A stretch of 64,000 bases of DNA from an uncultured Pseudomonadales bacterium (GCA_964393205.1 CAYMSV010000001.1:103440-167439), one strand, 5' to 3'. Positions 28,351 to 45,440 are shown, counted from the first letter of the stretch. The notes: a model not told the origin generated them from the sequence alone. Translations and numbers: made by a program.

Positions 28351-28368
28351 ATAGGAGTTTTTAAAAAG

Positions 28369-28442
28369 TGGGTATGCTTGGAATCGAACCAAGGACCTCA
28401 GTCTTATCAGGACTGCGCTCTAACCAACTGAGCTACACACCC
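28369..28442 (-). tRNA. tRNA-Ile (anticodon GAT)
   Basis: Hand-folded: GGGTGTG acceptor (one G-U), D-arm GCTCAGTTGGTTAGAGC, anticodon arm CAGTC-CTGATAA-GACTG, T-arm CTTGG-TTCGATT-CCAAG, discriminator A; no encoded CCA. Confidence 0.85.
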
Positions 28443-28488: not shown

Positions 28489-31098
28489 TCAAGCTTTTAC
28501 CAAATCAAGCTTTTTCTTCGTCCAATCTAATTTAATTTTGTCACCAGCCTGAATTTTGTTTTTAATCATTTGGCTAGCTAGCTCATCTAAGATCTCTTTT
28601 TGAATGAGGCGCTTTAGTGGTCTGGCTCCAAAAACGTGATCATAGCCAGTTTCAGCTAAATGTTCGATTAATTGTTCACTAAATTCTAATTTGATTTCTT
28701 GTTCAGCTAGGCGGTTAGCAACTAGATCAAGTTGCAGTTGTACAATCTCTTTAATTTCTTTTTTATCTAGACTTTGGAATATAATAATATCATCTAATCT
28801 ATTCAAAAACTCTGGGCGAAAATGCACCTTTAGCAAACCATCTAAAGCCTTCTTTTGTTCAACTGGATCACTACTGGTTTCGCTAATAATTTGACTACCC
28901 AAATTGGAAGTCATAATGATAATACTGTTTTTAAAATTGACAGTACGACCTTTGCTATCAGTCAAATGACCTTCATCCAAAACCTGTAGAAGAATATTAA
29001 ATACTTCGCTATGAGCTTTTTCAATTTCATCTAGTAAAACTATAGTATAGGGATGGCGACGAATAGCTTCTGTTAATTGACCACCTTCTTCATAGCCAAC
29101 ATAACCTGGTGGCGAGCCGATGAGGCGAGCCACGCTATGTTTTTCCATATATTCACTCATATCGATGCGGGTAATCAGACGCTCATCATTAAAAAGTTGT
29201 TCGGCAAGAGCCTTGGCTAATTCTGTTTTACCCACACCAGTGGGTCCAAGGAACAAGAAGCTACCAATAGGTCTGCCCTCTTCGCTAATGCCAGCACGAT
29301 TACGACGAATAGCGCCAGCCACTGCTTCAATAGCTTGATTTTGCCCAACAACTCTTTGACCAAGTTCTTTCTCCAAATTTATGAGTTTTTCGGTTTCTTC
29401 AGTAAGCATGCGACTAACCGGAATGCCCGTCCATTTAGAAACTATAGTGGCAATATCGCTTTCATCAATTTCTTCTTTGAGCAATCTTTGTGTTGGGTCA
29501 ATATCAGCCATTTTCGCTTGAGCTTCTTTTACTTTTTTCTCCAACTGAGGAATTTCTCCATAATTAATGGCGGCGGCTCGTTCTAGATCATAATTTCGTT
29601 CAGCTTTTTTTGCTTCTTCGCGAAGTTCATCTAATTTTCGACTGTATTTTTTAATTGAATCTAAAATTTCTTTTTCTTTGCGCCAGCGCAGCTCCAAGCT
29701 TTTGTATTCTTCTTTTAGTTCTCCAATTTGTTTTTCAATGTTTTTTAAGCGATCCTCACTTTTTTGACCTCTTTCTTTTTTAAGTGATTCTTTTTCAATT
29801 TCTAATTGGCGAATTTCTCGCTCCAATTGATCAATACTGTTGGGTTTACTATCAATTTCGATGCGTAGTGCTGAGGCAGCTTCATCCATTAAATCGATAG
29901 CTTTATCTGGCAAGAAACGATCACTAATATATCGATGAGAAAGTTTAACTGCAGCAATAATAGCGCCATCTAAAATGCGCACTCCGTGATGTGCTTCATA
30001 TTTACTTTTAATACCTCGTAGAATAGAAATAGCATCATCTACTGAAGGTTCTTCAACCATTACTGGTTGAAAGCGTCTTTCTAGCGCACTGTCTTTTTCA
30101 ACATATTGGCGATACTCTTTTAGAGTGGTTGCACCAATGGTGCGCAAGGTACCACGAGCTAGCGCTGGTTTAAGTAAGTTGCCAGCATCAGTTGATCCTT
30201 CACTGGCTCCGGCGCCAACAATACTGTGTAATTCATCGATAAAGAGTATGATCTGTCCTTCACTCTTTTCAATTTCTTTGATTACGGCTTTTAATCGATC
30301 TTCAAACTCTCCACGATATTTAGCTCCGGCTATCAGAGAACCCATATCTAAAGCTAAGATTCTTTTATTTTTTAGTGCTTCTGGGACATCATCATCAATA
30401 ATTTTTTTGGCCAAACCTTCGACAATGGCAGTTTTACCAGTGCCTGGTTCGCCAACCAAAACCGGATTGTTTTTGGTGCGACGCGACAAAATTTGAGTAA
30501 TACGACGAATTTCTTCATTGCGACCAATGACAGGATCAATTTTTCCTGAACGAGCTAGACTGGTAAAATCTAAGCAATATTTTTCTAGAGCCTGATATTT
30601 GCCCTCGGGTTCTGGATCAGTAACTCGTTGTTGACCACGTACTGTTTTTAAAGTTTGCACGACTTGTTTGGGATCAAGTTCGGTAAGTTGGACAACTTTT
30701 TTTTGGTTTAATAGTGCCAAAAACAAATGCTCAGTACTAATGTATTCGTCTTTAAGTTTTACTGCTTCTGTTTCTGCTTGACTTAAAACCTTACTTAGTT
30801 CTGGGGAAGCGTAAGCTTGAGTGGGCGCATCTGTGCTAGGTAATTGTTTAAGTTCTTTTCTAATTAAAGAAGCAATTGTTTCTGGATTTTTATCTAATTG
30901 TTCAAGCAAATTAGGAATGATGCCTCCTACTTGTTCAACTAGGGCTAATAATAGGTGCCAAATTTCGATTTGACTATGTTTGAGTTTGCCAGCCAGCTGC
31001 ATAGCGTCTTGTACAGCTTCACTGGCTTTGGTGGTATAGCGATCAAAGTTCATAAGTATTCTTTCAAGTTTATTAAAGGCTTTAGTGTTTATAAGCAA
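28489..31098 (-). CDS. clpB: Chaperone ClpB (Hsp104 family disaggregase)
   Basis: Clp N-domain, two AAA+ modules (GEPGTGKTA and GPTGVGKTE Walker A) with long middle coiled-coil; 869 aa. Confidence 0.95.
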
Positions 31099-31286: not shown

Positions 31287-31640
31287 TTATTTACCATAAC
31301 AAACATGAAAAAAATCTGCTATATCTTCGTAAATTTTTTCAATTTCTGAATCTGTAAGATCTTCATTGTTTTTTTCTGCAGAGCGAAGATTTTTATTTGA
31401 TTTTGACCTAGAATCTTCTTTGATCTTAGTAATAATAGTTTTTATAGCAAATTCTCTCAATTCGAAATCATAGGCAAAAACCTTTTGCATGGACTCATTA
31501 AAGCTATGAAGATAACTAAGAAGAGCTTTTAAGTCTTGTGGCGAATCTGATGAAAGTAATTTTTTAATAAGAGCTTGCGGGCCAATTTTGGCATGTTTTT
31601 CTCTTAATTCTTTTCCTCTTTTTTCTCTTTCTTTAGACAT
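31287..31640 (-). CDS. Hypothetical protein (117 aa), charged/helical
   Basis: ORF between 16S and clpB, no recognisable motif. Confidence 0.35.
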   Translation of the reverse strand: MSKEREKRGKELREKHAKIGPQALIKKLLSSDSPQDLKALLSYLHSFNESMQKVFAYDFELREFAIKTIITKIKEDSRSKSNKNLRSAEKNNEDLTDSEIEKIYEDIADFFHVCYGK

Positions 31641-31884: not shown

Positions 31885-33375
31885 TAGAAAGGAGGTGATC
31901 CATCGGCACCTTCCAGTACCGATACCTTGTTACGACTTAACCCTCATCGCTAATCTCGCCGTAGAAGGGCCGTTCTCTTGCGAGTTACGGTCACCCGCTT
32001 CGGGCGCTACTAACTTTGCTGGTTTGACGGGCAGTGTGTACAAGGAGCGAGAACGTATTCACCGCAACCTGCTGATTTGCGATTACTACCGATTCCGACT
32101 TCATGCTCTCGAATTGCAGAGAACAATCTGAACTGAGGGGCCGTTTAAAGGATTGGCTCCGCCTTGCGGCTTCGCTACCCGTTGTCGGCTCCATTGTAGG
32201 ATGTGTGTTGCCCTGGATGTAAGGGTCATGCTGACTTGACGTCGTCCTCTCCTTCCTCCCTGCAAAAAGCAAGGCAGTCTCCCGTGACACTTGTAACACG
32301 GGATAAGGGTTGCGCTCGTTACCACACTTAAGTGGACGCCTCACGACACGAGCTGACGACAGCCATGCAACACCTGTGTAACACTCTCGAAGAAGATCTA
32401 GTTTCCTAGACCGTGCAGTTACATGTCAAACCCAGGTAAGGTATTTCGCTTTGTATCGAATTAAACCACATGCTCCACCGGTTGTGCGCTCCCCCGTCAA
32501 TTCCTTTGAGTTTTAACCTTGCGGTCGTAATCCCCAGGCGCCTTGCTTAACGCGTTAGCTTACATCACTCAATTCAAAGAATCAAGCAATTAGCAAGGAT
32601 CGTTTACGGTCTGGACTACAGGGGTCTCTAATCCCTTTTGCTACCCAAACTTTCGTCCCTGAGCGTCAGTTGTACTCCAGGAGCTCGCCTTCGCGAATGG
32701 TGTTCCTCTCGATATCTACGGATTTCACCCCTCCACCGAGAATTCCAGCTCCCCCTAGTAAACTCAATTCTATCAGTATTTCAACCTGTATCTGGAGTTG
32801 AGCTCCAGTATTAAAGTCAAAACTTAATAAAACGCCGACGGACGCTTTACGCCCAATAAATCCGGATAATGCTTGCACCCTACGTATTACCGAGGCTTCT
32901 GGCACGTAGTTAGCAGGTGCTTTCTAGCAGGGTACCCTCAAAAATTGTTCCCCTGCCACAGTGGTTTACACTCCGAAGAGCGTCTTCCCACACGCGGTGT
33001 CGCTGCGTCAGGCTTTCGCCCATTGCGCAATATTCCCAGTTGCTGCCACCCGTAGGTGTAGGTTCCGTGTCTCAGTAACCTTGTGGCCGGTCGTGCTCTC
33101 ACACCGGCTACCTGTCATCGGCTTGGTGAGCTATTACCTCACCAACTACCTGATAGGACATAGGCCTCTCCCTAAGCGCCCGAAGGCTTTGATCCGGAGA
33201 TCACATGCGGTATTACCCAATCTTTCGACTGGCTATTCCCCACTTAGGGGTAAGTTCCTATGTTGTACTCACCCGTCTGCTACTTGTGTTAGTCCGAAGA
33301 CTAACTTACCGTTCAACTTGCATGCTTAAAGCACACCGCCAGCATTCATCCTGAGCCAGGATCAAACTCTTAAAA
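31885..33375 (-). rRNA. rrs: 16S ribosomal RNA (complete, about 1.49 kb), not linked to 23S/5S
   Basis: Minus-strand 5' end AGAGTTTGATCCTGGCTCAG (RC at 33351-33370), 3' end AAGTCGTAACAAGGTA...GGATCACCTCCTTTCT (RC at about 31887-31936); the internal 515F site is divergent (see findings). ORFs predicted inside this interval are spurious. Confidence 0.9.
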
Positions 33376-33604
33376 AAGTTTGATTTGCTCTATAAAAAAA
33401 TAAAAGTCAAATTGACGAGATGCAATCTTTAGTTTTAAAAACCAAAGATAAAATCTCTCTTGCACTTTCTATCACTATATTTGCTGTTAAAAAAATAGCT
33501 GTCTTTACTTGTTAAAGATCAAAAAAACTTCTTTTTAAGCAAAAAAAAGAAAGGAGAAAACTTCTAGCTTTCTCTAATCATCTCTCTTTGCCTGAAGTGG
33601 GAGT

Positions 33605-33633
33605 ATTATATGGTCAAAAATTTTTAAAGTCAA
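33605..33633 (-). promoter_or_regulatory. Near-consensus sigma70 promoter (TTGACT-17 nt-TATAAT) about 225 nt upstream of the 16S 5' end
   Basis: Minus strand reads TTGACTttaaaaatttttgaccaTATAAT; -35 at 33633-33628, -10 at 33610-33605. Confidence 0.45.
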
Positions 33634-33688
33634 CAGCGAAAACCAGATTAAAATTTGTTTTTTTACTTATGTTTTTAAATACAAGTTT

Positions 33689-34522
33689 GTGCTTTTTACA
33701 AAGCCAACTTTTTCTTTTATACTAGAAGCAATGCCTGCAATCAAACAGGCGATCGTTATGACTTTAACGGTCGTCTTTGCTTACGTATTTTTGCAAACGC
33801 CAGAATTATCGGTTTATTCTTTGCAATTTTTTGCTGTACTTTGTCTCGCCTATTGGTGGCTACAGAAAAAACAAGGAAAACACTTTTTTTATCTCTTCAA
33901 TGAGCAGGGCTCCAGCAACGTCTTAGTTTTAAATTTAGCTTTTTTAATTTTGATTGGCAACACTCAGGGTTTAGCCTCTGCCTTTTTTGCTCTAAGCTTT
34001 ATCCAGCTTTTTTTTGTAACCTTAGCACTTGAAAATCGTTTAGCAATTTTATTGTCTTTAGAATTATTTTTATTTTATTTGGGTTTAGCTTTGAATCGTT
34101 ATGGTTTAATTTTGTCTAACAACATAAGTATGACTGAGTTAAATAATTTAATAGCTATTCCTTTAGTAACTATTTTTTATTTATTCGGCAAAGTTCAATA
34201 CCAACGTTTGCACTATCATTCTTTGTTGCTTGATAGTGAAAAACAGGAAAAGATTCAGGCTCAAGCAGACGATCAAGCTGTATCGATTTTTATTAATAAT
34301 TTACTAGATAAGCGTTTGCCGATGTTGGAATACTTGCTTACCTTTCCCCAAAAAAACATGGTAATGATTCAGGCCGAAATGCAATCTTTAAAAAAAGATT
34401 TAAATAGTTTGATGAAAGAAATTAATCACAAAACTGTTAAAAATGAGTCGGCAATTCAAGAAAAAATATTAATAGAAGAAGAAGCAGAAGTTTTAATCAA
34501 AGCTATTGATGATGAAATTTAG
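33689..34522 (+). CDS. Membrane protein (about 5 TM) with C-terminal cytoplasmic coiled coil; first gene of a secreted-protein operon
   Basis: Hydrophobic helices through about aa 170, then K/E-rich heptad-like segment; overlaps next gene by 17 nt. Confidence 0.45.
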   Translation: MLFTKPTFSFILEAMPAIKQAIVMTLTVVFAYVFLQTPELSVYSLQFFAVLCLAYWWLQKKQGKHFFYLFNEQGSSNVLVLNLAFLILIGNTQGLASAFFALSFIQLFFVTLALENRLAILLSLELFLFYLGLALNRYGLILSNNISMTELNNLIAIPLVTIFYLFGKVQYQRLHYHSLLLDSEKQEKIQAQADDQAVSIFINNLLDKRLPMLEYLLTFPQKNMVMIQAEMQSLKKDLNSLMKEINHKTVKNESAIQEKILIEEEAEVLIKAIDDEI

Positions 34523-35246
34523 CTCAATCTTTTTACTGGTTTTTTTGTTTTCTTTTTTAAAGCCAGCAATGGTTAGGGCTGATAATATGAGTTCAAACTC
34601 TTATTATTTGCAATTTGGCAATTTTAATATGGGGAGTGGCGAGTTTGATACTGGTAGTCAATTTGGTTTGACTTATACCTTGGGCGGCACTGCTATTGGT
34701 CCCTATGGCGAATATGGTACTAGCCAGTATTTTATAGGTAGTGGTTTTCAATATATTTATCAAATTAGGCAATTTAGTTTTAGTTTATCCAAACTCAGCA
34801 TTGATCTTGGTGAGTTAAATCCAGGGTTTTTTGCTAGTGATAGTCATACTGTAACTATTAATACTGGTAGTGCCGGTGGTTATCAGGTTTATGTTTTTGA
34901 AAATCGTCCTCTAACTCATGTCAGTCAGCCAACTGAACAAATTCCCAACACCACATGTAACACTGGTTGTACAAAAAGTTTAGCAGGTATTTGGGACAAC
35001 CCAATTTATGATGGTTTTGGCTACCATGTGACTGGTGACAATACACCGAGTGATTTTATTAATAGTAGTTACTTTCGTCCCTTTGCTGATAATAGTTTAG
35101 GTGAAGACATGGAGCTGATTATGAGTAGTAATAATGTGGCTTTTGATGAAACAGCCACTATGACTTATCAAGCAGCTCCATCAGTAATGCAAGCGGCTGG
35201 TGATTATCAAACTTTTGTGGTTTTTGTAGCAGTACCAGGTTATTAA
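34506..35246 (+). CDS. Secreted protein, small member (246 aa) of a paralogous pair (with 36346..37800)
   Basis: Sec signal peptide (…PAMVRA|DN); G/T/S/Y-rich beta-type composition; C-terminal motif YQAAPSVMQAAGDYQTFVVFVAVPGY shared with the 484-aa protein. Confidence 0.6.
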   Translation: MMMKFSSIFLLVFLFSFLKPAMVRADNMSSNSYYLQFGNFNMGSGEFDTGSQFGLTYTLGGTAIGPYGEYGTSQYFIGSGFQYIYQIRQFSFSLSKLSIDLGELNPGFFASDSHTVTINTGSAGGYQVYVFENRPLTHVSQPTEQIPNTTCNTGCTKSLAGIWDNPIYDGFGYHVTGDNTPSDFINSSYFRPFADNSLGEDMELIMSSNNVAFDETATMTYQAAPSVMQAAGDYQTFVVFVAVPGY

Positions 35247-35247
35247 A

Positions 35248-36291
35248 ATGATTAAAAAAATAATTTTTACTCTTATTTTTTTTGTAAGCTTATTGTCAGG
35301 CAAGCTGTCTGTAGTTAGAGCTCAAGGAATTGATGCTTTATCCGTAAATATTAATCCACCAGTTTCCTATCTTTATATAAAGCCTGGCGCTGGTATTGGG
35401 GCACCAATTAATTTGGAAAATCAGGGCCGTTATACTATTAGAGTAACTCCACAATTAGTTGATTTCCGAACCCATAAACAAACCGGGCAAATTATTTTAG
35501 AACAAACTAGTGAGTTTAAACACTTATCGATTGCAGGCAATCAGGAGCGTTGGGGCGAAGAATTTATCATTAAGCCAGGAGAAAGTTATACTCTACCCCT
35601 GACAATTGCTGTGCCAGCAGATTTTCCTCAAGAGGAATATCATTTATCAGTATTATTTAATGTCGAACAAATGCTTTTTTCTGATTATGAAAAAAGCAGT
35701 AACACTATTTTGTCTGGTATTGTTGCTAGTCATTTAGTAGTGATGGTTAGCTTAGATGAAGCTGATCGTAGTCAAATTGTGATTAAAGATTTTCAATTAC
35801 CTAAGATAGTGGATAGTTTAATGGGAATTAATTTTAAGATTTGGGTAAAAAATATTGGTTTAAATGCCAGTCCAATTCGGGGTAAACTAAGTGTTAGTCA
35901 CTGGCCATCTCCTGAAAAAGAAGTTTATGAATTTTATCCAGATATGGTTTTGGCTGATAGTCAGCGACAAGTACGAGGAATGAGTGAAGGAAATTTGGCT
36001 CGTTTACAAGAGTTGACTGAGCAAGAGGAGATTATATTGGCCAATAATGAAGATTATTTTGAATTACAAAGTTTATTGGTGCAAGAAACTTTAATTAGTG
36101 ATTTTCGCTACGAGAAAGCTTTTTTATTAGGTGCTTATGATTTTCATCTGGAAATTGGAGATGAAGAGCAAACTGAAAGAGTGATAGCTCTACCCTTCTC
36201 AATTCTTATAGCCCTTATTTCATTGCCAATTTTGTCTCGTTTATTAATTATTCTAATAAAGAAACTAGATTTTAAACATAAAAAAAACTGA
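35248..36291 (+). CDS. Cell-surface protein: signal peptide + Ig-like ectodomain + C-terminal TM anchor with basic tail (DUF916/DUF3324-like architecture)
   Basis: Signal VVRA|QG; LSVNINPPVSYLYIKPGAGIGAPINLENQGRYTIRVTPQLVDF resembles the N-terminal pattern of DUF916 proteins; C-terminal LPFSILIALISLPILSRLLIILIKK + KHKKN. Confidence 0.5.
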   Translation: MIKKIIFTLIFFVSLLSGKLSVVRAQGIDALSVNINPPVSYLYIKPGAGIGAPINLENQGRYTIRVTPQLVDFRTHKQTGQIILEQTSEFKHLSIAGNQERWGEEFIIKPGESYTLPLTIAVPADFPQEEYHLSVLFNVEQMLFSDYEKSSNTILSGIVASHLVVMVSLDEADRSQIVIKDFQLPKIVDSLMGINFKIWVKNIGLNASPIRGKLSVSHWPSPEKEVYEFYPDMVLADSQRQVRGMSEGNLARLQELTEQEEIILANNEDYFELQSLLVQETLISDFRYEKAFLLGAYDFHLEIGDEEQTERVIALPFSILIALISLPILSRLLIILIKKLDFKHKKN

Positions 36292-36345
36292 GTTAAACTG
36301 CCCTTGACTCTCTGGCAAAAAAAATTATAAACTAGATTACATACT

Positions 36346-37800
36346 ATGCAAATAAAAAATCGTTTTTTGTTTTTATTGTCCCTTTTTATAATTATAAGCT
36401 CATTTTTTATCGGAATTCGCCCTAATCAGATAAAAGCAGCTAGTTTAAACAATGTTTCAACCCTGTTGAATAATGCGCGTTTCTCTTTTAGGAGTGCTCT
36501 CGAAGGTGCTCAAACTCTTGGTTCTTCTTTAATTACTATTGATGTAACTAACTATCCATCGACTTCGGTTTTGCAACTACAATCTGGTGATGTATTAAGA
36601 ATTGGTGGCGTTAATAATTACAATGTAGCCACTACCATCGATGACGCTACTGATGACAAAGTCAGTTTAACTTCCGGTTTATTAACTGGCGACATAGCAG
36701 ATGAAACCGCCCTAATTTCTACCCAGTCTTCAACTTTGACGGTTAAATTAACAACAGTGAGTGCACTGGAGAATGGAACTATTCGTATTTTGGTTCCGGC
36801 TACAAGTGCTACGGCAACTAATCGAGATGGATTGCCTGATGATGATGGATTTGATTTTGGAGGTAGCGCAAACGCAGCTATTACTTGTCCAGCCACCTAT
36901 CCAGCTGGATTTACAGGATTTACTGGAACGAGTAGTTATGCCAATGGCTCAGTTGAGATAGATGGTATTGATTATCATGTTTTTGACTGTGCTTACACGG
37001 GCACTGGAGCAGTTAGTGCTGCTTTTGATGGGACAACTTATCCAGCTTTTACAATTGCTAATTTAATTAATCCTTCGCCGAGTAGTTCGAGCGTTTTAGG
37101 AGAAGCAGATACTTATACGATCATAATTAGGCATTTGGCGAGTGACGATACCATAATTGATGAAACTTTAGCTAAAGTAGGAGTGATAGATGCAGTTCGT
37201 GTTTCGGCTACTATTCTACCTCAATTAACTTTTACCATTGAGGGCGTAGCATCCGGTCAAAGTAAATGTGGCATCACTACAGATGCTACTACTACACCTT
37301 TGGCCGTTCCTTTTGGAGATATTACCATTGGTACTTTCTCTGATTTGGCTCAGGTTTTAACTGTAACTACTAACGCGGCCAATGGCTATCAAGTAACAGC
37401 GGCAGAAAGTGATCAATTGGGTAAGGATGGACAGGCTTGTGCTGGTGATGGTTCGGCCGATACTGCTTGTATCGTTGATGCTAATGTTACTGGCATGAGC
37501 AATACTGTTTCAGCAGATTGGGCTGTAGTTACTGGAGATCAATATGGTTTTGGTTTCACTATAGGTTCGGCCACTGCTGGAATAACCAGACCTTTTTACT
37601 ACAATGAATCCGGCAGAACTTACAGTGCTCGCCATTTCTCAGATTTAGCTGAATCCACTGATCCTGAAACGATTTTCTCTCGCTCTACAGCAGCTCTGGA
37701 AGACATAGTAGATGTTTGTTATCGACTAACACCCTCTGCACTCAATGTAGCTGGAGACTATGAGAACTACATTGTGTACATAGCAACAGCTACTTTTTAA
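36346..37800 (+). CDS. Secreted protein, large member (484 aa) of the paralogous pair; Thr/Ala/Gly-rich
   Basis: Signal peptide (…QIKA|AS); C-terminal about 200 aa alignable with the 246-aa protein (…NGYQVTAAESD…C…C…GFGFTIG…YRLTPSALNVAGDYENYIVYIATATF). Confidence 0.6.
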   Translation: MQIKNRFLFLLSLFIIISSFFIGIRPNQIKAASLNNVSTLLNNARFSFRSALEGAQTLGSSLITIDVTNYPSTSVLQLQSGDVLRIGGVNNYNVATTIDDATDDKVSLTSGLLTGDIADETALISTQSSTLTVKLTTVSALENGTIRILVPATSATATNRDGLPDDDGFDFGGSANAAITCPATYPAGFTGFTGTSSYANGSVEIDGIDYHVFDCAYTGTGAVSAAFDGTTYPAFTIANLINPSPSSSSVLGEADTYTIIIRHLASDDTIIDETLAKVGVIDAVRVSATILPQLTFTIEGVASGQSKCGITTDATTTPLAVPFGDITIGTFSDLAQVLTVTTNAANGYQVTAAESDQLGKDGQACAGDGSADTACIVDANVTGMSNTVSADWAVVTGDQYGFGFTIGSATAGITRPFYYNESGRTYSARHFSDLAESTDPETIFSRSTAALEDIVDVCYRLTPSALNVAGDYENYIVYIATATF

Positions 37801-37851
37801 GATTTAAAATTTAATTAATAATAAGAAACAGTTTAAAAATCAAGGAACAGA

Positions 37852-38847
37852 ATGCAACTAACCTGCCCAAAAAAGAATATTAAGATTCTTATTTTTCTTT
37901 TAAGTTTATTTATATTTACTTTCAGTTTGAAATCGGTGGCTATCGCCCAGGAGGCTTTGTCCTTGACAGTGAAGCCGGTCAGAATTGGAGATGATAATTC
38001 TTTACTTCTAAGTCCTGGTGAAAAAAAACAAATTCAAGTGAAGGTAGAAAACAACTCTCAAATGGACTTACAAATAGAGAGTCAAGTTTTAGATTTTATT
38101 GTGGCTCAAGACGGAACAACCCCGATTCCTGTTACAGAAGAACAAGATAACCGCTGGAGTTTAGCTAGTTGGATGACTCTGGCACCAGCAAGTAATTTTT
38201 TACAAGCTGGTGGGTCAGCAACCGTTAATGTTTTAATTGAAGTGCCCGAGGATGCTCTTCCTGGGGGTCGTTATGCTATGGTGTTACACAGTCCTGATGT
38301 AGGAGGAGTTGAAGACCAAACTGGAGCTGGTATTGCTCAGCGAGCAGGTACTTTGATTTATGTGATAATTGATGGTCCAATTAATGAATTAGCCTATGTT
38401 AACTTTTTTAGAGTGCCTGGATTTTTAGAAAAAGGACCAGTGCCTATGGAAATTAAGATTAGAAACGAATCAGACGTTCACATTACACCAACCCCGCAAA
38501 TTAAAGTTTTTAACATTTTTGGTAAAGAAATAGATAGATTGGTACTAGATCAGAAAAATGTTTTTCCTTTAACCGAGCGAGATTTTAGTGATGTTTGGCA
38601 GAAAAAATGGGGTTTTGGTCCCTACACTCTTAGGTTAGAAGCTGTCTACGGATTTCAAGGACAGGTGGCAAGTGCTGAAGCAGTAATCTGGTTAATACCA
38701 GTAACAATTATTATAATTGTTTTGCTTAGTATTTTACTGATTGTGGCTATAGTTTTGGCAATTAAGAAGAAACAAAGTCAGAAGGCACCATTTAAAGAGA
38801 TGCCAGAAGCTGAAACTCAGCCAATGGATGATCAAGATCAACAATAA
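37852..38847 (+). CDS. Cell-surface protein, paralog of 35248..36291 (signal peptide + Ig-like ectodomain + C-terminal TM anchor, DUF916/DUF3324-like)
   Basis: Signal AIA|QE; LSLTVKPVRIGDDNSLLLSPGEKKQIQVKVENNSQMDLQIESQVLDF parallels the motif in the 347-aa protein; C-terminal VTIIIIVLLSILLIVAIVLAIKKKQSQK. Confidence 0.5.
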   Translation: MQLTCPKKNIKILIFLLSLFIFTFSLKSVAIAQEALSLTVKPVRIGDDNSLLLSPGEKKQIQVKVENNSQMDLQIESQVLDFIVAQDGTTPIPVTEEQDNRWSLASWMTLAPASNFLQAGGSATVNVLIEVPEDALPGGRYAMVLHSPDVGGVEDQTGAGIAQRAGTLIYVIIDGPINELAYVNFFRVPGFLEKGPVPMEIKIRNESDVHITPTPQIKVFNIFGKEIDRLVLDQKNVFPLTERDFSDVWQKKWGFGPYTLRLEAVYGFQGQVASAEAVIWLIPVTIIIIVLLSILLIVAIVLAIKKKQSQKAPFKEMPEAETQPMDDQDQQ

Positions 38848-41035
38848 AAAACGATTATTGAGATTTAAAAAAAATAAAAGCTTTCTTATTACTCATCAAT
38901 TATGTAGAAAGCTTTTATTTTTTCTTTTACTATTCTTTATATTTTCAAAAGCAAGTTTTGCGCAAACTGTAGATCCTGTAACTAGAAATGTAATAGTGTC
39001 AGCTAGTATTCCTGATACGATTCCTCCCTCAACACCAATTTTGATTACTCCAGAAGATGGAGCTAACGTTGATACGGCCCGTCCGGTTTTTCAGTGGTAT
39101 GAGAGTACAGACAATAAGGGCATGTCTCATTACGAATTTCGTCTAGATGGAAGATCTTGGTTTAACAATATTCCCCTATCTAGTTTTGCTAATGAAGATT
39201 ACAGTTTAAACTATGATGCCGGATCGGGAATTTATACTTTTGTAGCTAATCAAGATTTAAGTCATGGTACTCATCGTTGGCAAATTATTGCTTATGATCA
39301 GCTAAACAATAGTGCTGCCTCTACTATTTGGAATTTTAATGTTTTTGTTAATGAACCGCAGTTTACAATTAGGAAAATTGCGGATGTTAATACTAGTATA
39401 AGCTCCACCAATCCCTCAAGTGTTCCTGAGGAACCCATTACTCTTTTTTCAACTGATCCATTTGCTAATGAACCTTGGATTATAGCTCTAGGAGCTCCTA
39501 ATTTAGAGGTAGATTTAACAGTTATCATACCTAACAGTGCTGACCAATCTTTTAGCCAAGAGACCGATAGTAGTGGAAATTGGAGTTTACAGTTAGGTAT
39601 TTTACCTCGAGATGAGATAGTACGATTAGACTTTACTATTACTGACGTAGTTGGACACAAAAGCTATATTCGTGAGCTTTATATTATTATTAATCGGCAT
39701 TATTGGCCCCCCACCGCAATACCAACAGCGACAATTACCGAAACTCCTCCAACAACCGCTCCAACTTCTTTTATCTCTCCCAGTATTACTCCCAGTATCA
39801 CCACTTCTATTACACCAACTCAAGATCCAACTGTTACTCCGTCTATTACTCAAGCGAGCCCAGCGCCCGTAACTCCATTGCCCTCACCAGGTATTAGGGT
39901 GCCAATTATTCCACCAAAGGAAGTAGTTCATGATTTAGTTGAAGACGTTAAAAGAAGTTTGCCTGATCGAATAGCCAACTTAATGACTGATTTTAGTGGA
40001 TCGCCTATATGGAAAGCTGTAAATAATTTTTCAGCCATAGCTTTAGCTTTGCTATTGCCAATTGCCAGTTATTTGTTTGTGTTATTTAAGTTTTATCAAT
40101 CTTTTTCAATAAAAACCTTTCAAGAGGTTCTGATGGCCTTATGGCCTTGGTCTAAAAAAAGAAAAAATTTAGTATTTGAGTATCGCAATAGTCAGGCTGC
40201 TCCTTTGGTGAAAGTGGAACTAATAGACGCTGAAACGAATGAAGTTTTAGATTGGCAAATAACTAACTATTTAGGACGATTTATTAACTTTGATTGGCCG
40301 ACGGGACGTTCTCTCAAATTGAGAGTGAAAGATCATAATTTCTATTTTCCAATAGGTGGTGGTAAGCCACTTTATTTATCTTGGCACAATTTTTATCAGG
40401 GAGAAACTTTTAATTATCAAGAAGCCTCAAAAAATAAAAAAGTTGCTGCAAACATATTTGCTGGTCGACGAGCTCTAGCGATCCCTACGCTTTTGGCTCA
40501 AGGCAAACATAACCTACCCCTAATTGAGCGCCTCAGGGTTGTTTTGGCCTATTTAGTGACCTATCCAAGCTGGTTTTTTCTACTAAGTTTGTTTCCTGTG
40601 TTAATTTTAGTATTGAGGTATCCAAGCTTTTTGAATTATTTAGCACTTGTTTATTATTTTATAGTAGCATTCTTTAAACACGCTAATCGTTTAGGAAAAA
40701 AGACTTGGCAGTTTAGAGTATTAACCAGCAATGGCCACAAAGTTAATCAAAACCTAATACTTATCACTAATGATTTAATAAAAGGATATTCTCAAGCTCA
40801 AATAGTAAATATCAATGAGGCTTTGAGTCCTAAATTAAAATTTGTGAAAAATGAATTTATTTTTAGCTTACAAACAAAGGATTATGCCTTGTGGGATAGT
40901 CAGCGTGCAATTAGTGAAATGGAATATAGTCTTAGAAGAGAATCAATTGGTGAGTTTAAATTACATCTAATTGAAAGTTCTAATCACAGCCTTAGGATTT
41001 TGCAACCCCTTTGTCAATTATTGCACCAGCAATAA
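38828..41035 (+). CDS. Large envelope protein: signal peptide, FN3/Ig-like domain, Pro/Thr/Ser/Ile-rich linker, CarbopepD_reg-like beta-sandwich, C-terminal polytopic membrane domain
   Basis: Signal SFA|QT; PVFQWYESTDNKGMSHYEFRLDG (FN3-like); linker TITETPPTTAPTSFISPSITPSITTSITPTQDPTVTPSITQASPAPVTPLPSPG; LIDAETNEVLDWQITNYLGRFINFDWPTGRSLKLRV; at least 4 TM helices at C-terminus. Confidence 0.5.
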   Translation: MIKINNKKRLLRFKKNKSFLITHQLCRKLLFFLLLFFIFSKASFAQTVDPVTRNVIVSASIPDTIPPSTPILITPEDGANVDTARPVFQWYESTDNKGMSHYEFRLDGRSWFNNIPLSSFANEDYSLNYDAGSGIYTFVANQDLSHGTHRWQIIAYDQLNNSAASTIWNFNVFVNEPQFTIRKIADVNTSISSTNPSSVPEEPITLFSTDPFANEPWIIALGAPNLEVDLTVIIPNSADQSFSQETDSSGNWSLQLGILPRDEIVRLDFTITDVVGHKSYIRELYIIINRHYWPPTAIPTATITETPPTTAPTSFISPSITPSITTSITPTQDPTVTPSITQASPAPVTPLPSPGIRVPIIPPKEVVHDLVEDVKRSLPDRIANLMTDFSGSPIWKAVNNFSAIALALLLPIASYLFVLFKFYQSFSIKTFQEVLMALWPWSKKRKNLVFEYRNSQAAPLVKVELIDAETNEVLDWQITNYLGRFINFDWPTGRSLKLRVKDHNFYFPIGGGKPLYLSWHNFYQGETFNYQEASKNKKVAANIFAGRRALAIPTLLAQGKHNLPLIERLRVVLAYLVTYPSWFFLLSLFPVLILVLRYPSFLNYLALVYYFIVAFFKHANRLGKKTWQFRVLTSNGHKVNQNLILITNDLIKGYSQAQIVNINEALSPKLKFVKNEFIFSLQTKDYALWDSQRAISEMEYSLRRESIGEFKLHLIESSNHSLRILQPLCQLLHQQ

Positions 41036-42122
41036 CTAACAAATTTAACTTATCTTTTTTATAAAAAACTGCGGCTTGACCGCTGGCTGGAGCAAAGATT
41101 TTTTTATCTGTTCTTACAAGGATTTCATTTTTAATTTTTTTTACTTGGCAAGAAATTAATTGACCACTGTTGCGAATTTTAACTAAAGCAGAAAATTTTT
41201 CCTTTTTTTCCCATGATTTTTGATCCTGTTCTTTAATAAAGACCAAGTTTTTAATTGTAAATTCTTTTTTAAAACAAAGGTTTGCTTTTGCTACCACCAA
41301 TTGATTAGTTTTTTTCAGTTTATCTATGACAGCTAAAGCCGGGGGTTTATTTTTGGAAAAGCTAATTGCTTGACTATTTTTTAAGGCTTGATGATCGATA
41401 TTAAAACCTCGACGTTGGCCCAATGTATAAAAAGCTAATCCCTGGTGCTTACCAATGATTAAGCCTTTTTGGTCAATAATATCGCCCGATTTTTTTTGTA
41501 AATTTTCATTCAAAAATTCTTTTAAATTACTGTCTTTTAAAAAACAGATGTCAAAAGATTCTCGGTTCAAACAATCCAAATTATTTTTTTTAGCAATTTT
41601 TTTGACTTCTGATTTTTTTAAATTACCAAGTGGAAACAAAAGTTGGGCTAATTGTTTTTCTTGAAGTTGATACAAGAAGTAGCTTTGATCTTTATCTTGG
41701 TCTTCAGCAGCTGCTAGATAATAAGCATCCAATTTTTTAATAATTTTGGCATAATGACCAGTGGCCAAATGACTAAAGCCTTGTTCTTTAGCCCAATCAA
41801 ACAGGTAGCCAAATTTGAGAAGCTTGTTACAAACAGTGCAAGGATTAGGAGTATGTCCCTTTTGATAATTATTCAGCAAATAATCAACCACACATTTTTT
41901 CTGTTTTTGGGAGTAATCTAGAGTAATAAATGGAATTTTTAAGGATTGAGCAATTTGTTTAGCTATTTTACTTTCCTGAATAATTCGTTTTTTTTGTTCT
42001 TGATTACGAGCATACAGTTTTAAATAAACTGCACTAACATCAAAATTTTCTTTTTTTAATAAATAAGCAACAGTGCTGGAATCAACTCCTCCGGAAAGAG
42101 CAAGTAAAATTTTTTTTGACAT
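40992..42122 (-). CDS. mnmA: tRNA-specific 2-thiouridylase MnmA
   Basis: PP-loop ALSGGVDSS, catalytic Cys region (…NPCTVCNK…), C-terminal beta-barrel; 376 aa. Confidence 0.9.
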   Translation of the reverse strand: MSKKILLALSGGVDSSTVAYLLKKENFDVSAVYLKLYARNQEQKKRIIQESKIAKQIAQSLKIPFITLDYSQKQKKCVVDYLLNNYQKGHTPNPCTVCNKLLKFGYLFDWAKEQGFSHLATGHYAKIIKKLDAYYLAAAEDQDKDQSYFLYQLQEKQLAQLLFPLGNLKKSEVKKIAKKNNLDCLNRESFDICFLKDSNLKEFLNENLQKKSGDIIDQKGLIIGKHQGLAFYTLGQRRGFNIDHQALKNSQAISFSKNKPPALAVIDKLKKTNQLVVAKANLCFKKEFTIKNLVFIKEQDQKSWEKKEKFSALVKIRNSGQLISCQVKKIKNEILVRTDKKIFAPASGQAAVFYKKDKLNLLVIAGAIIDKGVAKS

Positions 42123-42124
42123 AG

Positions 42125-43108
42125 TTAGAAAATAAAGTTACGTTTAGCCAAAACCTTAACTCTTTTTTGATAAGCTAATGGATCATAGGTATAAAATTTG
42201 GGTAATAGAGCTTGGTAACTTGGATTCATTTTTTGAGCTTTTGCAATATCCTCAATGGCTAATTTTCCATAATATAGGAGACTGGGATTATATTGGTGGT
42301 TTTTTAAATATTTTAAAACTTGCTCAAAACCTTCTAGGTAAACAAAGCTTTTGCTGAAGCCTCCTGGCAAACTAGTGTCTGTTAAGCCTCTTTTATTTTT
42401 TAGAGCATAAGACCAAGATTTTTGAGAATCTTGTAAATATTCGTAGAAAAAAGCGTAGACCGTTTTAAAATCTTTTTTTTGAGCTACTTGAGCGCCCAAA
42501 TAGGATAAAGCAGTTTTAAAAATCAATTGTTGTTCGCTGTTTAAATATTGATGAATAACAGCCAATCCTTCTTCGGTACGCAAATGATTGCTAAATCCAT
42601 AGTGTTTTTTACGACGGTACCAGTCTTGTTTCTCATAATTTTCTTGACGCAGGATATGGGTGCCTATTTCATGATCTAGAGTATTACTTAATTTTTGTTT
42701 AGAAAAAGCAACAGGCAATCTAACTTTAATCGTATTATTTTTGAAATTAACAGCAAATCGACTAGTAAAATCTTTATCAAAGACTAGCTGATATTTTTTA
42801 TTCAATGAATATTCAGCTAAATATTTCTCAATGATTTGAGATGTAGTTTTAGTATCTAATTTTTCATTTGATAGTTGGTTTTTTTGAAAAAGGTTTTCTT
42901 TTTTAGCCTGTTTAATAATTTTTTTAGCTAAACGAGAATAGCGCCAACGAGACCTACCATAAAAATCCAAATCGCTTTGTTTTATTGTTGTTTGATATTT
43001 AAATTGAGGGTTGTAGTTAGTATTATTGGCAAAAAATTTTTCTTTTTCTGCTAACAAATTAACTGGTACTAATTCACTAAGTTTAAGCATTTTGACTATT
43101 AGGATCAA
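42125..43108 (-). CDS. DUF1704 / QEGLA-motif protein (putative zinc metallopeptidase; 'flavohemoglobin expression-modulating QEGLA motif protein' family)
   Basis: Contains …LRTEEGLAVIHQYL… (QEGLA-like motif) and a potential metal-binding LDHEIGTH segment; 26-nt overlap with the upstream ATP-grasp gene. Confidence 0.55.
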   Translation of the reverse strand: MILIVKMLKLSELVPVNLLAEKEKFFANNTNYNPQFKYQTTIKQSDLDFYGRSRWRYSRLAKKIIKQAKKENLFQKNQLSNEKLDTKTTSQIIEKYLAEYSLNKKYQLVFDKDFTSRFAVNFKNNTIKVRLPVAFSKQKLSNTLDHEIGTHILRQENYEKQDWYRRKKHYGFSNHLRTEEGLAVIHQYLNSEQQLIFKTALSYLGAQVAQKKDFKTVYAFFYEYLQDSQKSWSYALKNKRGLTDTSLPGGFSKSFVYLEGFEQVLKYLKNHQYNPSLLYYGKLAIEDIAKAQKMNPSYQALLPKFYTYDPLAYQKRVKVLAKRNFIF

Positions 43109-44381
43109 TTAGAAAACCATCTAAATCTTGGCGGCCAAGTTCTAGCTTATGTTGACGATGATTTAGTTTCTTACTAACTAACATGGTGGTTTTAACAATG
43201 TGACCTTTTAATTTAAATTTAACTTCCACGACAGGCAAACTACCTTCTTCTTTTTCTTTTTGAAACCACAATAAATCTTCTAGGTCTAATAAACCTAGTT
43301 CACCAGCCAAATCACGAGCAATAGCACTATGAAGTCGTCCAGTATTAATAAAAGCTGAAGTGGAAATTCCTTGTTTTTTTTCACCATACAGAATAATTTC
43401 TTCTCGCAAATTAATTTTAGTAATTTCATTTTTTATTTTAACTCGATTTGAAAAATCACTGGCAAATAAAGCCTGGGCAATTTTTACTCCATGTTCGGGA
43501 TTAATGACATTTAGACCTTCTACTCTTTCTAATCGACGACGCATGCCGGCACGATTGGCAGCTTGAATTGATAATCCTGGTGTGGCATTAAGTTCAACCA
43601 CCATTGGACCTTTAGTCTTATGTAAGAAAATGTCGATTCCAGAAAAGGCCAGATCTGCGACTTCGCTGGCTTGGACGGCGGTTAATAAGGCTTTGTACCA
43701 ATTGGGAATAGTAATGCCGTTAAGCTTTTTTTTGGTTCCTGGTAAATATTGAATATTTTGTTTTTTATGAGCAACGGCATGAGTGGTAATACCACTAGCA
43801 ATATCAATTCCTACAGCAATTGCTCCCTGTGTAACATTAGCGCGACCCGCAGACTCTTCAGTAGGTAAACGTAACATGGCCATAACAGGTACACTGTTGA
43901 AAACAATAACTCTAATATCGGGTGTGCCCTTATAAGAATATTTTAATAACTTAGGATGAATTGGAATACGTTCTTCAATAATAACGTTATGATTGGTGCC
44001 GTGAATGCTATATTGTCCAGCCAAAATGTTTCTGCAATGTAATTTGATGTCGTCTTCATCCCACTTTTCTCCTAAAACATCTAACCAATACTGGCTATTA
44101 ACTTTATTTCTAAAGGCAATAACACCAGTGCCGGCATGACCATTAGTGGGTTTGATAACAAAATCACCCTCTAGTTTTTGCCAATTAAAATCATTAACGT
44201 CTTCATCGGTGCCTAAAATGCCATAGATTTCTGCAGAGGGAATATTATTGTCGTTTAATAATATTTTAGTGGCGTATTTAGAACGAGCGATAGCTTTAGC
44301 TTTACGAGAATTACGACTCACATATAAACTGTTGCGAGCATTGATGCCTAGGAGGTCGCTGGCTGTGGCTTGTTTAGTCAT
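43083..44381 (-). CDS. ATP-grasp ligase, RimK-like ('alpha-L-glutamate ligase-related protein' family)
   Basis: ATP-grasp elements (…FVIKPTNGHAGTGV…, …RLPTEESAGRANVTQGAIAVGID…, …MVVELNATPGLS…); 432 aa with extra C-terminal domain. Confidence 0.6.
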   Translation of the reverse strand: MTKQATASDLLGINARNSLYVSRNSRKAKAIARSKYATKILLNDNNIPSAEIYGILGTDEDVNDFNWQKLEGDFVIKPTNGHAGTGVIAFRNKVNSQYWLDVLGEKWDEDDIKLHCRNILAGQYSIHGTNHNVIIEERIPIHPKLLKYSYKGTPDIRVIVFNSVPVMAMLRLPTEESAGRANVTQGAIAVGIDIASGITTHAVAHKKQNIQYLPGTKKKLNGITIPNWYKALLTAVQASEVADLAFSGIDIFLHKTKGPMVVELNATPGLSIQAANRAGMRRRLERVEGLNVINPEHGVKIAQALFASDFSNRVKIKNEITKINLREEIILYGEKKQGISTSAFINTGRLHSAIARDLAGELGLLDLEDLLWFQKEKEEGSLPVVEVKFKLKGHIVKTTMLVSKKLNHRQHKLELGRQDLDGFLIDPNSQNA

Positions 44382-44393
44382 AGTTGACTTTTC

Positions 44394-45440
44394 TTATTCT
44401 TCTAGTCCTGAAAAATCATCAGTCATAAATTTTTTAAATTTTTGGGACTGACTTTTGTTACTAAGCAAGTCTTTGAAGCGAAAATATTCAAAGATTCTTA
44501 GTCCGGTGTAGCGACCGATAGCTAGATTAATCACTGTTACCAGTAGAATGGTTAATTCAGGTTTTAAAATAACAAATTTCCTGACGGTTTCATTATCTAC
44601 CAACAAAGTACCAACAATTGCCAATATCAATGTTTCAAAAGTTACGCTGAGAGCCTCTCCTCTGCTAGCAAACATTTGAGTGGTCATAAAGTTCTCAGTA
44701 AGCAAAATAATAATAAGCAATGGGAAGATGCTTACATTAAGCACTAAATCAATTTTGAATAAAGAACCAATAATCAATAAAAATAATATTGACATCGAGA
44801 CAATGAGTAGGAGCATAGCTGTTTTTGGCAAGAGTGGCATTTTTAAAAACTTTACTAGATATCTAGCTAAAGTTGCTGATAAAAGTACAGCTAAAAACAA
44901 AATAATGCCCGCTAGTAGACCAGTAGATACAAAAGCTACTGATAAAACTGCTGGAATATAAATACCAAAACCTTTAAAACCAATTACATGTCTAGCTAAG
45001 GCTACAATTGAAGCAATGACTGGAAAAATTAGCATAATTACTACTAAGCTAGTTGGTAAACCTTGAGCAACAGCAAGACGAATAGCTTTTTGTAGAAAAT
45101 TAGTTGGACTAAGTGGACCAATAGGATTTTCATCTAAATGTGCTGCTAAAACACTTTTTTGTCTGCCCGTAGTTTCAGTAATGTCTTCGTCAGTTTTTTG
45201 TTGAATTTTTTCTACTATTTCTGCTGATGGCGAGGATAATTTAACACTATCGCTTGCCTCTGCTTCTTCAGTTGCCTCTTCAATTACTTCTAAATTTTCT
45301 AGATCTTCTCCTTCAAATTGAATGGGATTAATGGTTTGAGCGTAAATTTTTTGCTGTTTTAGATTTGGCCAAAAAGCCAGAACAAGAAAGGCAAAAATAA
45401 AAATCAATAAATAAGTGGGTAAGATTTTTTTAAAATTCAT
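44394..45440 (-). CDS. Signal peptide + periplasmic segment + about 7 TM helices membrane protein (7TM family that is usually fused to an inactive transglutaminase)
   Basis: N-terminal signal, acidic about 100-aa extracytoplasmic region, then 6-7 TM helices; immediately upstream of ATP-grasp/DUF1704 pair. Confidence 0.4.
   Translation of the reverse strand: MNFKKILPTYLLIFIFAFLVLAFWPNLKQQKIYAQTINPIQFEGEDLENLEVIEEATEEAEASDSVKLSSPSAEIVEKIQQKTDEDITETTGRQKSVLAAHLDENPIGPLSPTNFLQKAIRLAVAQGLPTSLVVIMLIFPVIASIVALARHVIGFKGFGIYIPAVLSVAFVSTGLLAGIILFLAVLLSATLARYLVKFLKMPLLPKTAMLLLIVSMSILFLLIIGSLFKIDLVLNVSIFPLLIIILLTENFMTTQMFASRGEALSVTFETLILAIVGTLLVDNETVRKFVILKPELTILLVTVINLAIGRYTGLRIFEYFRFKDLLSNKSQSQKFKKFMTDDFSGLEE

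Follow-up and report, generated by a model that had tools for sequence, protein, structure and literature searches.

Which structure is assembled from six secreted or membrane-bound proteins that are encoded side by side and that carry the name 'hypothetical protein' in public sources? The question was raised by a 64,000-nucleotide (nt) stretch of DNA from an uncultured Pseudomonadales bacterium (GCA_964393205.1, CAYMSV010000001.1:103440-167439), referred to here at its full length as the window. Between positions 33689 and 41035 the window holds six closely packed open reading frames (ORFs), all on the + strand and comprising two paralogous pairs: g1 (33689-34522, 277 amino acids (aa), GTG start), g2 (34506-35246, 246 aa, TTG start), g3 (35248-36291, 347 aa), g4 (36346-37800, 484 aa), g5 (37852-38847, 331 aa) and g6 (38828-41035, 735 aa). 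The spacing from g1 to g6 is -17, +1, +54, +51 and -20 nt. A preliminary description of the window had delineated the same tightly packed, same-strand block beside the 16S rRNA region, and its coordinates, overlaps, 1-nt gap and paralogous pairs (g2/g4 and g3/g5) were confirmed. It had likened the locus to the WxL/Csc surface loci of Firmicutes, a comparison that held for the anchored proteins, the synteny and the surface role, but failed for the secreted components. The block is probably a Pam-type pilus operon of the Microgenomates type, belonging to a bacterium of the candidate phyla radiation (CPR; Minisyncoccota/Patescibacteria).

Pam pili were first described in 2026 from Ca. Mycosynbacter amalyticus (Saccharimonadia), two filaments of which were solved by cryo-electron microscopy (cryo-EM) by Troman et al. 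(bioRxiv 10.64898/2026.03.03.709456). According to these authors, PamA and PamB are two-domain pilins; the strand that links the two domains enters the open Ig-like domain at the C-terminus of the neighbouring subunit, and conservation is highest in this linker and in the site that binds it. The pam operon further encodes the single-domain tip pilin PamT, the FimC/PapD-like chaperones PamC and PamD, which keep a C-terminal transmembrane (TM) helix, and the RbmA-like anchor PamR, which has a TM helix and one additional strand at its N-terminus. Homologues of PamA in Microgenomatia, with about 21 % identity, were reached by language-model search only (bioRxiv 10.64898/2026.03.03.709456).

The secreted proteins g2 and g4 had an N-terminal hydrophobic signal only in a hydropathy scan and are paralogous over residues 97-242 of g2 and 319-480 of g4 (BLASTP, E=7e-13). 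The putative PamT-like tip subunit g2 (34506-35246, + strand) begins with a Sec signal, predicted to be cleaved after VRA at about residue 25, and a Gly/Tyr/Phe-rich N-terminal region; the remainder, about aa 86-246 (nt 34761-35243), is a putative acceptor domain of the Pam-pilin type and a paralogue of the C-terminal domain of g4. The putative major pilin g4 (36346-37800, + strand) is PamA-like in its two-domain build, with a Sec signal, an N-terminal beta-sandwich domain, a linker and a putative C-terminal acceptor domain (aa 294-484, nt 37225-37797). Against the NCBIfam equivalog PamT (NF058579, 'CPR-type pilus protein PamT') g2 scored 30.4 bits with E=2.5e-7 at a cut-off of 240, and against Pam_pilin_C (NF058581) 15.9 bits with E=0.01 at a cut-off of 55; g4 reached 6.3 bits (E=9.2) on Pam_pilin_C at the same cut-off. 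Among the relatives, Pam_pilin_C was matched by 53 of the 57 g2-family members (best 5.8e-10) and by 41 of the 73 g4-family members (best 1.9e-9), in both cases below cut-off, and PamT by 29 of the 57 g2 relatives (best 1.5e-10, far under cut-off). The remotest sequence relatives of g4 are proteins of 366-393 aa, the size of PamB, which have the C-terminal domain alone in common with it. This PamB-sized family spans Wildermuthbacteria, Dojkabacteria, Nealsonbacteria and Saccharimonadales, and its members gain up to 41 bits on the Pam pilin model, none reaching the NCBIfam cut-off. An exhaustive profile search placed 2,072 clusters (50 % identity) in the g4 pilin superfamily at E<=1e-3 and 329 at E<=1e-30; its best 150 matches were close g4-like proteins only. 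In Foldseek, the AlphaFold2 (AF2) model of g4, with a predicted local distance difference test (pLDDT) of 92, came closest to CfaB, CfaE, Saf and FimH, all of them chaperone-usher pilins, and sequence searches of the PDB with g2, g4 and the family profiles returned neither a Pam pilin nor a WxL chain. Judged by these family-level matches, g2 and g4 probably belong, as distant members, to the Pam pilins of CPR. The earlier suggestion that the pair might form a divergent or new family was a reasonable guess; the Pam system had not been considered.

The two domains of g4 are joined by the linker AVRVSATI (aa 283-290, nt 37192-37215, + strand; consensus AV[RK]V[TS]A[TS]V), a putative donor strand. 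V284 is invariant in the g4 family, V286 and A288 are nearly so, and in the AF2 monomer the linker is coil with reduced pLDDT between flanking domains above 95. In other CPR classes, the PamB-sized pilins are more highly conserved in this motif, which there reads G-V-T-V-S-A-T-V, than anywhere else along their length. A donor-strand-like copy, VIVSASI, stands in g6 (aa 55-61, nt 38990-39010, + strand), 9 residues past the predicted SFA|Q cleavage site, where the family consensus V-T-V-[TS]-A-[TS]-V-P-D is among the best-conserved positions (A59 96 %, D63 95 %). The strict pattern V-x-V-[TS]-A-[TS]-[VIM] had two occurrences only when all 64 kb of the window were translated in six frames, one being the g4 linker and the other g6 residues 55-61. 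Among orthologues it was present in 54 of 78 g4, 21 of 74 g6 and 0 of 67 g2 proteins, compared with 4 of 2,376 unrelated ORFs; a looser pattern was found in 38 of 71 g6 orthologues. The locus consists of an acceptor only (g2), a donor plus acceptor (g4) and a donor only that is combined with a membrane anchor (g6), no Pam pilin C-terminal domain having been detected in g6. From this distribution of motif and acceptor we infer a polarity in which g2 would form the tip and g6 the base of a strand-exchange pilus, and the g4 linker would, by analogy, act as the donor.

The anchored proteins g3 and g5 have the same topology in the hydropathy scan, a signal, a C-terminal TM helix and a basic tail, which is acidic/basic in g5. 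Both have two Ig-like domains, the first being DUF916-like in g5. They are full-length paralogues and matched each other with E=7e-5 in pairwise comparison and with 99.5 % probability (E=2.4e-23, 266 columns) as family profiles. The preliminary description had noticed a likeness to DUF916, and it was borne out. Pfam PF06030 (WxLIP_PGBD, formerly DUF916) was matched by g5 with E=3.4e-5, slightly below the gathering score, by 67 of 76 g5 relatives (best 1.8e-8) and by 13 of 59 g3 relatives, and some g5 relatives are already annotated 'DUF916 domain-containing protein'. A sequence match to PF11797 (DUF3324) was not obtained for g5 or its relatives in the Pfam search. Reference WxLIPs were taken from WxL clusters in Listeria, Lactiplantibacillus, Lactococcus, Enterococcus, Lactobacillus and Levilactobacillus plasmid records; hhalign aligned the g5 family to these Firmicutes proteins with 96.8 % probability (E=2.3e-10) over 226 columns spanning both Ig domains, and the g3 family with 95.2 % (E=2.6e-8). 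The best PDB match of the g5 AF2 model (pLDDT 85) was the E. faecium WxLIP 9i1y_A (Foldseek, E=5e-14), together with 9i25_C, 'bound to long WxL', followed by the chaperones CfaA, YadV, FimC, CupB2, DraB, CsuC and PapD (E=1e-10 to 1e-8). At the sequence level no match to the Pfam models of PapD-type chaperones was seen. Thus, g3 and g5 are homologues of the Firmicutes WxLIP (DUF916/DUF3324). A candidate complementing strand of g5 lies in a hairpin (aa 148-173, nt 38293-38370, + strand) that aligned to the hairpin of EfmWxLIP1, which AF2 predicts to insert in WxL and to complete its sandwich (PMC10599100). Residues 151-160 form the sole low-confidence loop of the g5 ectodomain (pLDDT 54), and the conserved strand Q163-G166-T-L-x-Y-V (Y170) follows. 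Judging from gene adjacency, g5 probably serves g4, and g3, with a gap of 1 nt, probably serves g2. The second Ig domain of g3 contains an insertion of about 40 residues, many of them charged or helix-forming (residues about 245-285, positions 35980-36100; LARLQELTEQEEIILANNEDYFELQSLL), that is missing from g5, appearing as a gap in the hhalign alignment; an extra element sets PamD apart from PamC (bioRxiv 10.64898/2026.03.03.709456).

The last gene, g6 (38828-41035, + strand), would encode the pilus terminator and membrane anchor, PamR-like in role on the strength of an architecture match only. The Sec signal and the donor-strand-like motif are followed by two Big_13/FN3-like Ig domains (aa 66-290), a proline/threonine-rich (P/T-rich) spacer (aa 293-350) and a first TM helix, TM1, and after TM1 by a CarboxypepD_reg-like domain, a TM2-TM3 hairpin and a C-terminal domain. 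Big_13 was found in 59 of 60 family members and CarboxypepD_reg in 44 of 60; together with the P/T-rich linker and the three TM-like segments this agrees with the earlier sketch of a multidomain protein with FN3-like, linker, CarbopepD-like and membrane parts. By the positive-inside rule, applied to the K/R-rich flanks, the last two domains are probably cytoplasmic. The conserved first gene, g1 (33689-34522, + strand), encodes a polytopic membrane protein. Its charged, coiled-coil-like C-terminal tail had been recognised before, whereas the five TM helices then reported are not what a crude hydropathy scan gives, namely four TM-like peaks (four to five TM helices). The family is present in 64 related loci and had no informative Pfam or PDB match; g1 may be a membrane platform or a regulator.

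Members of the g5 family were found in 135 species-representative genomes, from which 80 loci were kept for comparison and scanned with hidden Markov models (HMMs) built from the six proteins. The order g1-g2-g3-g4-g5-g6 was colinear and in the same orientation in 62 of the 80 loci, 11 further loci were interrupted by contig ends, and 7 hold part of the block only, with no contig end accounting for the remainder. The synteny that had been proposed as a check is therefore present, and the block is a conserved operon and not a chance run of ORFs. The six family HMMs found no further paralogues elsewhere in the 64-kb window. Informatively titled relatives belong to Pacebacteria, Paceibacterota, Microgenomatus, Woesebacteria or the 'Patescibacteria group', which are all CPR. 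The record title 'uncultured Pseudomonadales bacterium' is shared by many CPR-type contigs with the block, while candidate division TM6 (CP011212.1, an 853-kb complete genome), Limisphaerales, Methylococcaceae and Vitreimonas occur in single titles. These non-CPR record titles look like mis-assignment or mis-binning and are unfit for taxonomy.

With these parts, assembly would proceed by chaperone-assisted donor-strand exchange without an usher and would result in a thin extracellular filament. The five exported proteins (g2-g6) all have A-x-A-type cleavage sites, and these signal peptides suggest that they cross the membrane via Sec. The anchored g3 and g5 would cap the open C-terminal Ig-like domain of g2 and g4 with a strand of their hairpin. 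The linker AVRVSATI of an incoming g4 would then displace the chaperone strand and complete the C-terminal domain of the preceding subunit, as the cryo-EM structures of PamA and PamB suggest. The product would be a linear polymer with g2, an acceptor without donor strand, at the distal tip. Entry of the N-terminal strand of g6 into the last g4 would halt growth, and the two Ig domains of g6 and its P/T-rich, wall-spanning spacer would tie the filament to the three-TM membrane module. In this scheme g1 would be an accessory membrane component.

The proposed pilus resembles the Pam system in many respects. Both are CPR-specific and have a Sec-exported two-domain pilin whose linker is conserved, two PapD/FimC-like chaperones with a C-terminal TM helix, a single operon and no usher, and the truncated-Ig acceptor domain and the single-domain tip of the Pam system have putative equivalents in g4 and g2; an Ig/FnIII anchor with an extra N-terminal strand is common to both as well, PamR having been compared with g6 by description. 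In contrast to PamA, PamB and PamE, there is one pilin here, g4, as the sole pilin with a donor strand, and the block adjoins a 16S rRNA gene in a Microgenomates/Pacebacteria-like lineage. Other differences weigh against the identification as a Pam-type pilus. The sequences are remotely related, every protein of the window staying under the curated NCBIfam cut-offs, so that membership amounts to a remote, family-level similarity. Moreover, g1 is extra here, and g6, with 735 aa, a P/T-rich spacer, three TM helices and two probably cytoplasmic beta-rich domains, differs from PamR with its single C-terminal helix; neither g1 nor the extensive membrane and cytoplasmic portion of g6 has a counterpart in the published Pam model. 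A further relationship is with the chaperone-usher pili (type 1/Fim, P/Pap, CFA/I, Csu), which share the chaperone and pilin folds that were the top structural matches, the logic of donor-strand complementation and exchange, and a polarity in which the tip is acceptor only and the terminator donor only. Unlike these pili, the system presented here has no outer membrane or usher (an usher-like family was not detected in the six proteins), its chaperones are anchored and not soluble, its pilin has an additional N-terminal domain, and the donor, g6 excepted, is the inter-domain linker, whereas it is an N-terminal extension in chaperone-usher pili. On motifs and gene content, an usher-based system and two other pilus types were rejected: the six proteins contain no LPxTG and no sortase-family match, as a sortase-assembled pilus would require, and no class III signal peptide (G|F-T-L-x-E) of a type IV pilus, the signals being Sec-type.

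Among the rival explanations, a non-filamentous surface complex of the WxL/Csc type survives best, and we consider it unlikely. It holds that g3 and g5 each retain one secreted partner (g2, g4) at the wall by strand insertion, so that binding domains are displayed without polymerisation. WxL/Csc clusters of Lactobacillales and Bacillales encode a small WxL protein, a large WxL protein and a WxLIP composed of DUF916, DUF3324 and a TM helix (PMC10599100, PMC9772566, PMC1534035; PDB 9i1y, 9i25). The anchored proteins of the block are true homologues of WxLIP over both Ig domains, with the same succession of signal, two Ig domains and C-terminal TM helix, and in both the hairpin after the first domain is the predicted strand donor, WxLIP being predicted to complete the WxL sandwich with its hairpin strand (PMC10599100). 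The secreted partners, one small and one large with a common C-terminal domain, are encoded beside the anchored proteins in the order small secreted, anchored, large secreted, anchored, which resembles that of WxL clusters. On the other side, the secreted partners lack W-x-L, there are two WxLIP-like genes instead of one, an LPxTG protein is missing among the six, the organism belongs to CPR and not to Bacillota, and the conserved putative donor strand of the g4 pilin would imply polymerisation.

The preliminary description had likened the place of the secreted pair in the gene order to that of WxL-small and WxL-large, noting that obvious W-x-L motifs were missing, and a WxL identity of the pair was not upheld. 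No W-x-L motif occurs in g2 or g4, PF13731 (WxL) was matched neither by these two proteins nor by any of 73 g4-family members, the hhalign probabilities against WxL alignments were 0.2 %, 0.3 % and 1.9 %, and the WxL structure 9i25_A was not among the top fold matches. By eye, two WxL motifs have look-alikes in the pilins (GTNAGW-x-L-T versus TNA-x-x-GY-x-V-T, and G-x-YTTT-L-TW-x-L versus AG-x-YTNT-x-VYV), and the test was therefore repeated with a deeper set of 17 WxL domains against 125 C-terminal domains from CPR, including shuffled controls. In hhalign the last 42 columns alone, corresponding to the C-terminal strand, aligned with a score of 20.8 and a probability of 1.9 %. This short likeness favours the WxL/Csc-type complex in so far as the score exceeded those of all 100 column-shuffled profiles (8.7 +/- 1.7), but it was equalled by 2 of 100 block-shuffled profiles, and a global alignment of the WxL domains with the CPR pilin C-terminal domains found nothing. 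The resemblance of the C-terminal strands is a hint and no evidence of homology, and a homology of WxL and pilin domains was rejected as unproven. The published definition of a WxL cluster asks for at least one WxLIP and at least two WxL proteins (PMC10599100). By this definition the locus is not a WxL cluster: at least one WxLIP is present, but neither g2 nor g4 has a WxL domain (PF13731, two W-x-L). A static 1:1 complex would also leave unexplained the linker motif of g4, its copy in g6 and its absence from g2, and the pilin-family matches point to a family whose filaments have been proven by cryo-EM. Still less probable is a surface structure of another kind, with nothing but Ig-like folds in common with pilus systems (for instance a coat resembling an S-layer, a complex of adhesins, or an appendage related to sortase-assembled or type IV pili), since the six proteins have neither LPxTG nor class III signals (the rest of the window was covered with the six family HMMs only), the family-level matches to Pam_pilin_C/PamT and to WxLIP/PapD-like chaperones are specific, and the distribution of the donor motif is predicted by a strand-exchange polymer and not by a two-dimensional lattice.

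The Pam-type organisation is also seen in two distant CPR loci, L085 and L086, where WxLIP_PGBD-type genes flank the pilins and Ig-domain genes follow. A g1-like gene is not annotated in these two loci, and no matching NCBIfam model was apparent for their chaperone-like or anchor-like proteins. In L085 a protein of 273 aa carries VTVSATI 7 residues past its signal peptide and has a dockerin-like C-terminus (DINDNGPVDLVDFSVMMFHWNGG); it is followed by a gene for a cohesin-like protein that begins with a TM helix. The observation of a possible cohesin/dockerin-type anchor covers L085:13410-14752 and L086:12120-13873. These lineages may anchor the base of the pilus by a cohesin-dockerin pair and not by a fused membrane domain as in g6. 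Giant proteins of more than 3,000 aa with Laminin_G_3/DUF2341 domains adjoin the Pam-like operons of both loci (L085:1-8912, L086:1-4911), which belong to unrelated CPR lineages, and they may be pili-associated adhesins.

Upstream of the block, a complete bacterial 16S rRNA gene (31888-33377, - strand) is separated from g1, which begins 311 nt away, by a divergent intergenic region (33378-33688). The best promoter-like site in this gap (33633->33605, 11/12) faces the 16S gene. A + strand promoter-like site at 33695-33723, like the former a consensus match only, is located barely inside the longest g1 ORF; on identical public contigs gene callers place the g1 start 14 codons downstream (263 aa, ATG at 33731) and give 245 aa for g2, one residue fewer. 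The 54-nt gap ahead of g4 (36292-36345) holds a further promoter-like site on the + strand (36304-36333, 9/12), which might act as an internal promoter raising the expression of the g4 pilin. In a consensus scan, the number of promoter-like sites across the region was not above the shuffled expectation (23 versus 25.6), and the transcript structure was therefore deduced from the gene spacing. The adjacency to the 16S gene is kept in 3 of 7 relatives tested, closer ones only. For pam operons, an ATP-synthase neighbourhood has been reported (bioRxiv 10.64898/2026.03.03.709456). In the window, the 16S gene and tRNA-Ile (28368-28442) are parted by an ORF of 117 aa (31287-31640) and a full clpB (28489-31098) on the - strand, and 23S and 5S rRNA were not found within the 64 kb. 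The distance from 16S to tRNA is about 0.7-1.4 kb in the relatives L015, L018 and L025. In L018 a group II intron domain (RF01998, 37 bits) at 2440-2519 adjoins the 16S gene, and the 16S match is also shorter (2807-4155). Downstream, genes on the - strand (40992-45440) converge with g6, beginning with mnmA (tRNA 2-thiouridylase), which overlaps the 3' end of g6 by 44 nt. They continue with MATCAP-family (PF08014), ATP-grasp (ATPgrasp_ST) and 7TM_transglut membrane proteins, the Pfam labels being taken from identical public contigs. This trio looks like a peptide-modification module.

Two features of the Pam-type operon described here appear to be new beyond the published Pam description: the membership of Pam-type chaperones in the Firmicutes WxLIP/DUF916 family, and the mature N-terminus of the anchor, at which the donor-strand motif of the pilin is repeated. 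WxL, DUF916 and DUF3324 are not mentioned in the Pam paper (bioRxiv 10.64898/2026.03.03.709456), and our literature search returned no paper joining DUF916/PF06030 with CPR. The Pam chaperone family thereby extends to lactobacilli, enterococci and Listeria, and two literatures without mutual citation are joined. The link suggests that WxLIP is a membrane-anchored, strand-donating chaperone, which offers a mechanistic lead for the long-unexplained WxL/Csc clusters. A wider reading, which we regard as speculative and doubtful, is that WxL/Csc clusters and the Pam pili of CPR are two branches of an ancient monoderm system presenting proteins via membrane-anchored chaperones. The chaperone half of this reading is well supported; the half that concerns pilins and WxL would rest on two short motif resemblances. 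If it were true, WxLIP would be the orthologue-level counterpart of PamC/PamD, and WxL domains would be diverged Pam-pilin-like acceptors in which W-x-L corresponds to Y-x-V and the mobile N-terminal strand to the donor strand. The WxL proteins could then be assembled, even oligomerised, by donor-strand complementation, and g1 together with the cytoplasmic half of g6 would represent a previously unrecognised inner-membrane assembly platform.

A considerable part of bacterial diversity consists of CPR bacteria, which live attached to other cells. The filament proposed here likely serves to reach and attach to a host cell, which supports the cell-surface or host-attachment role foreseen in the preliminary description. 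Our findings indicate that the Pam pilus, structurally shown in one species of Saccharimonadia, has a compact and very widely conserved Microgenomates-like counterpart.

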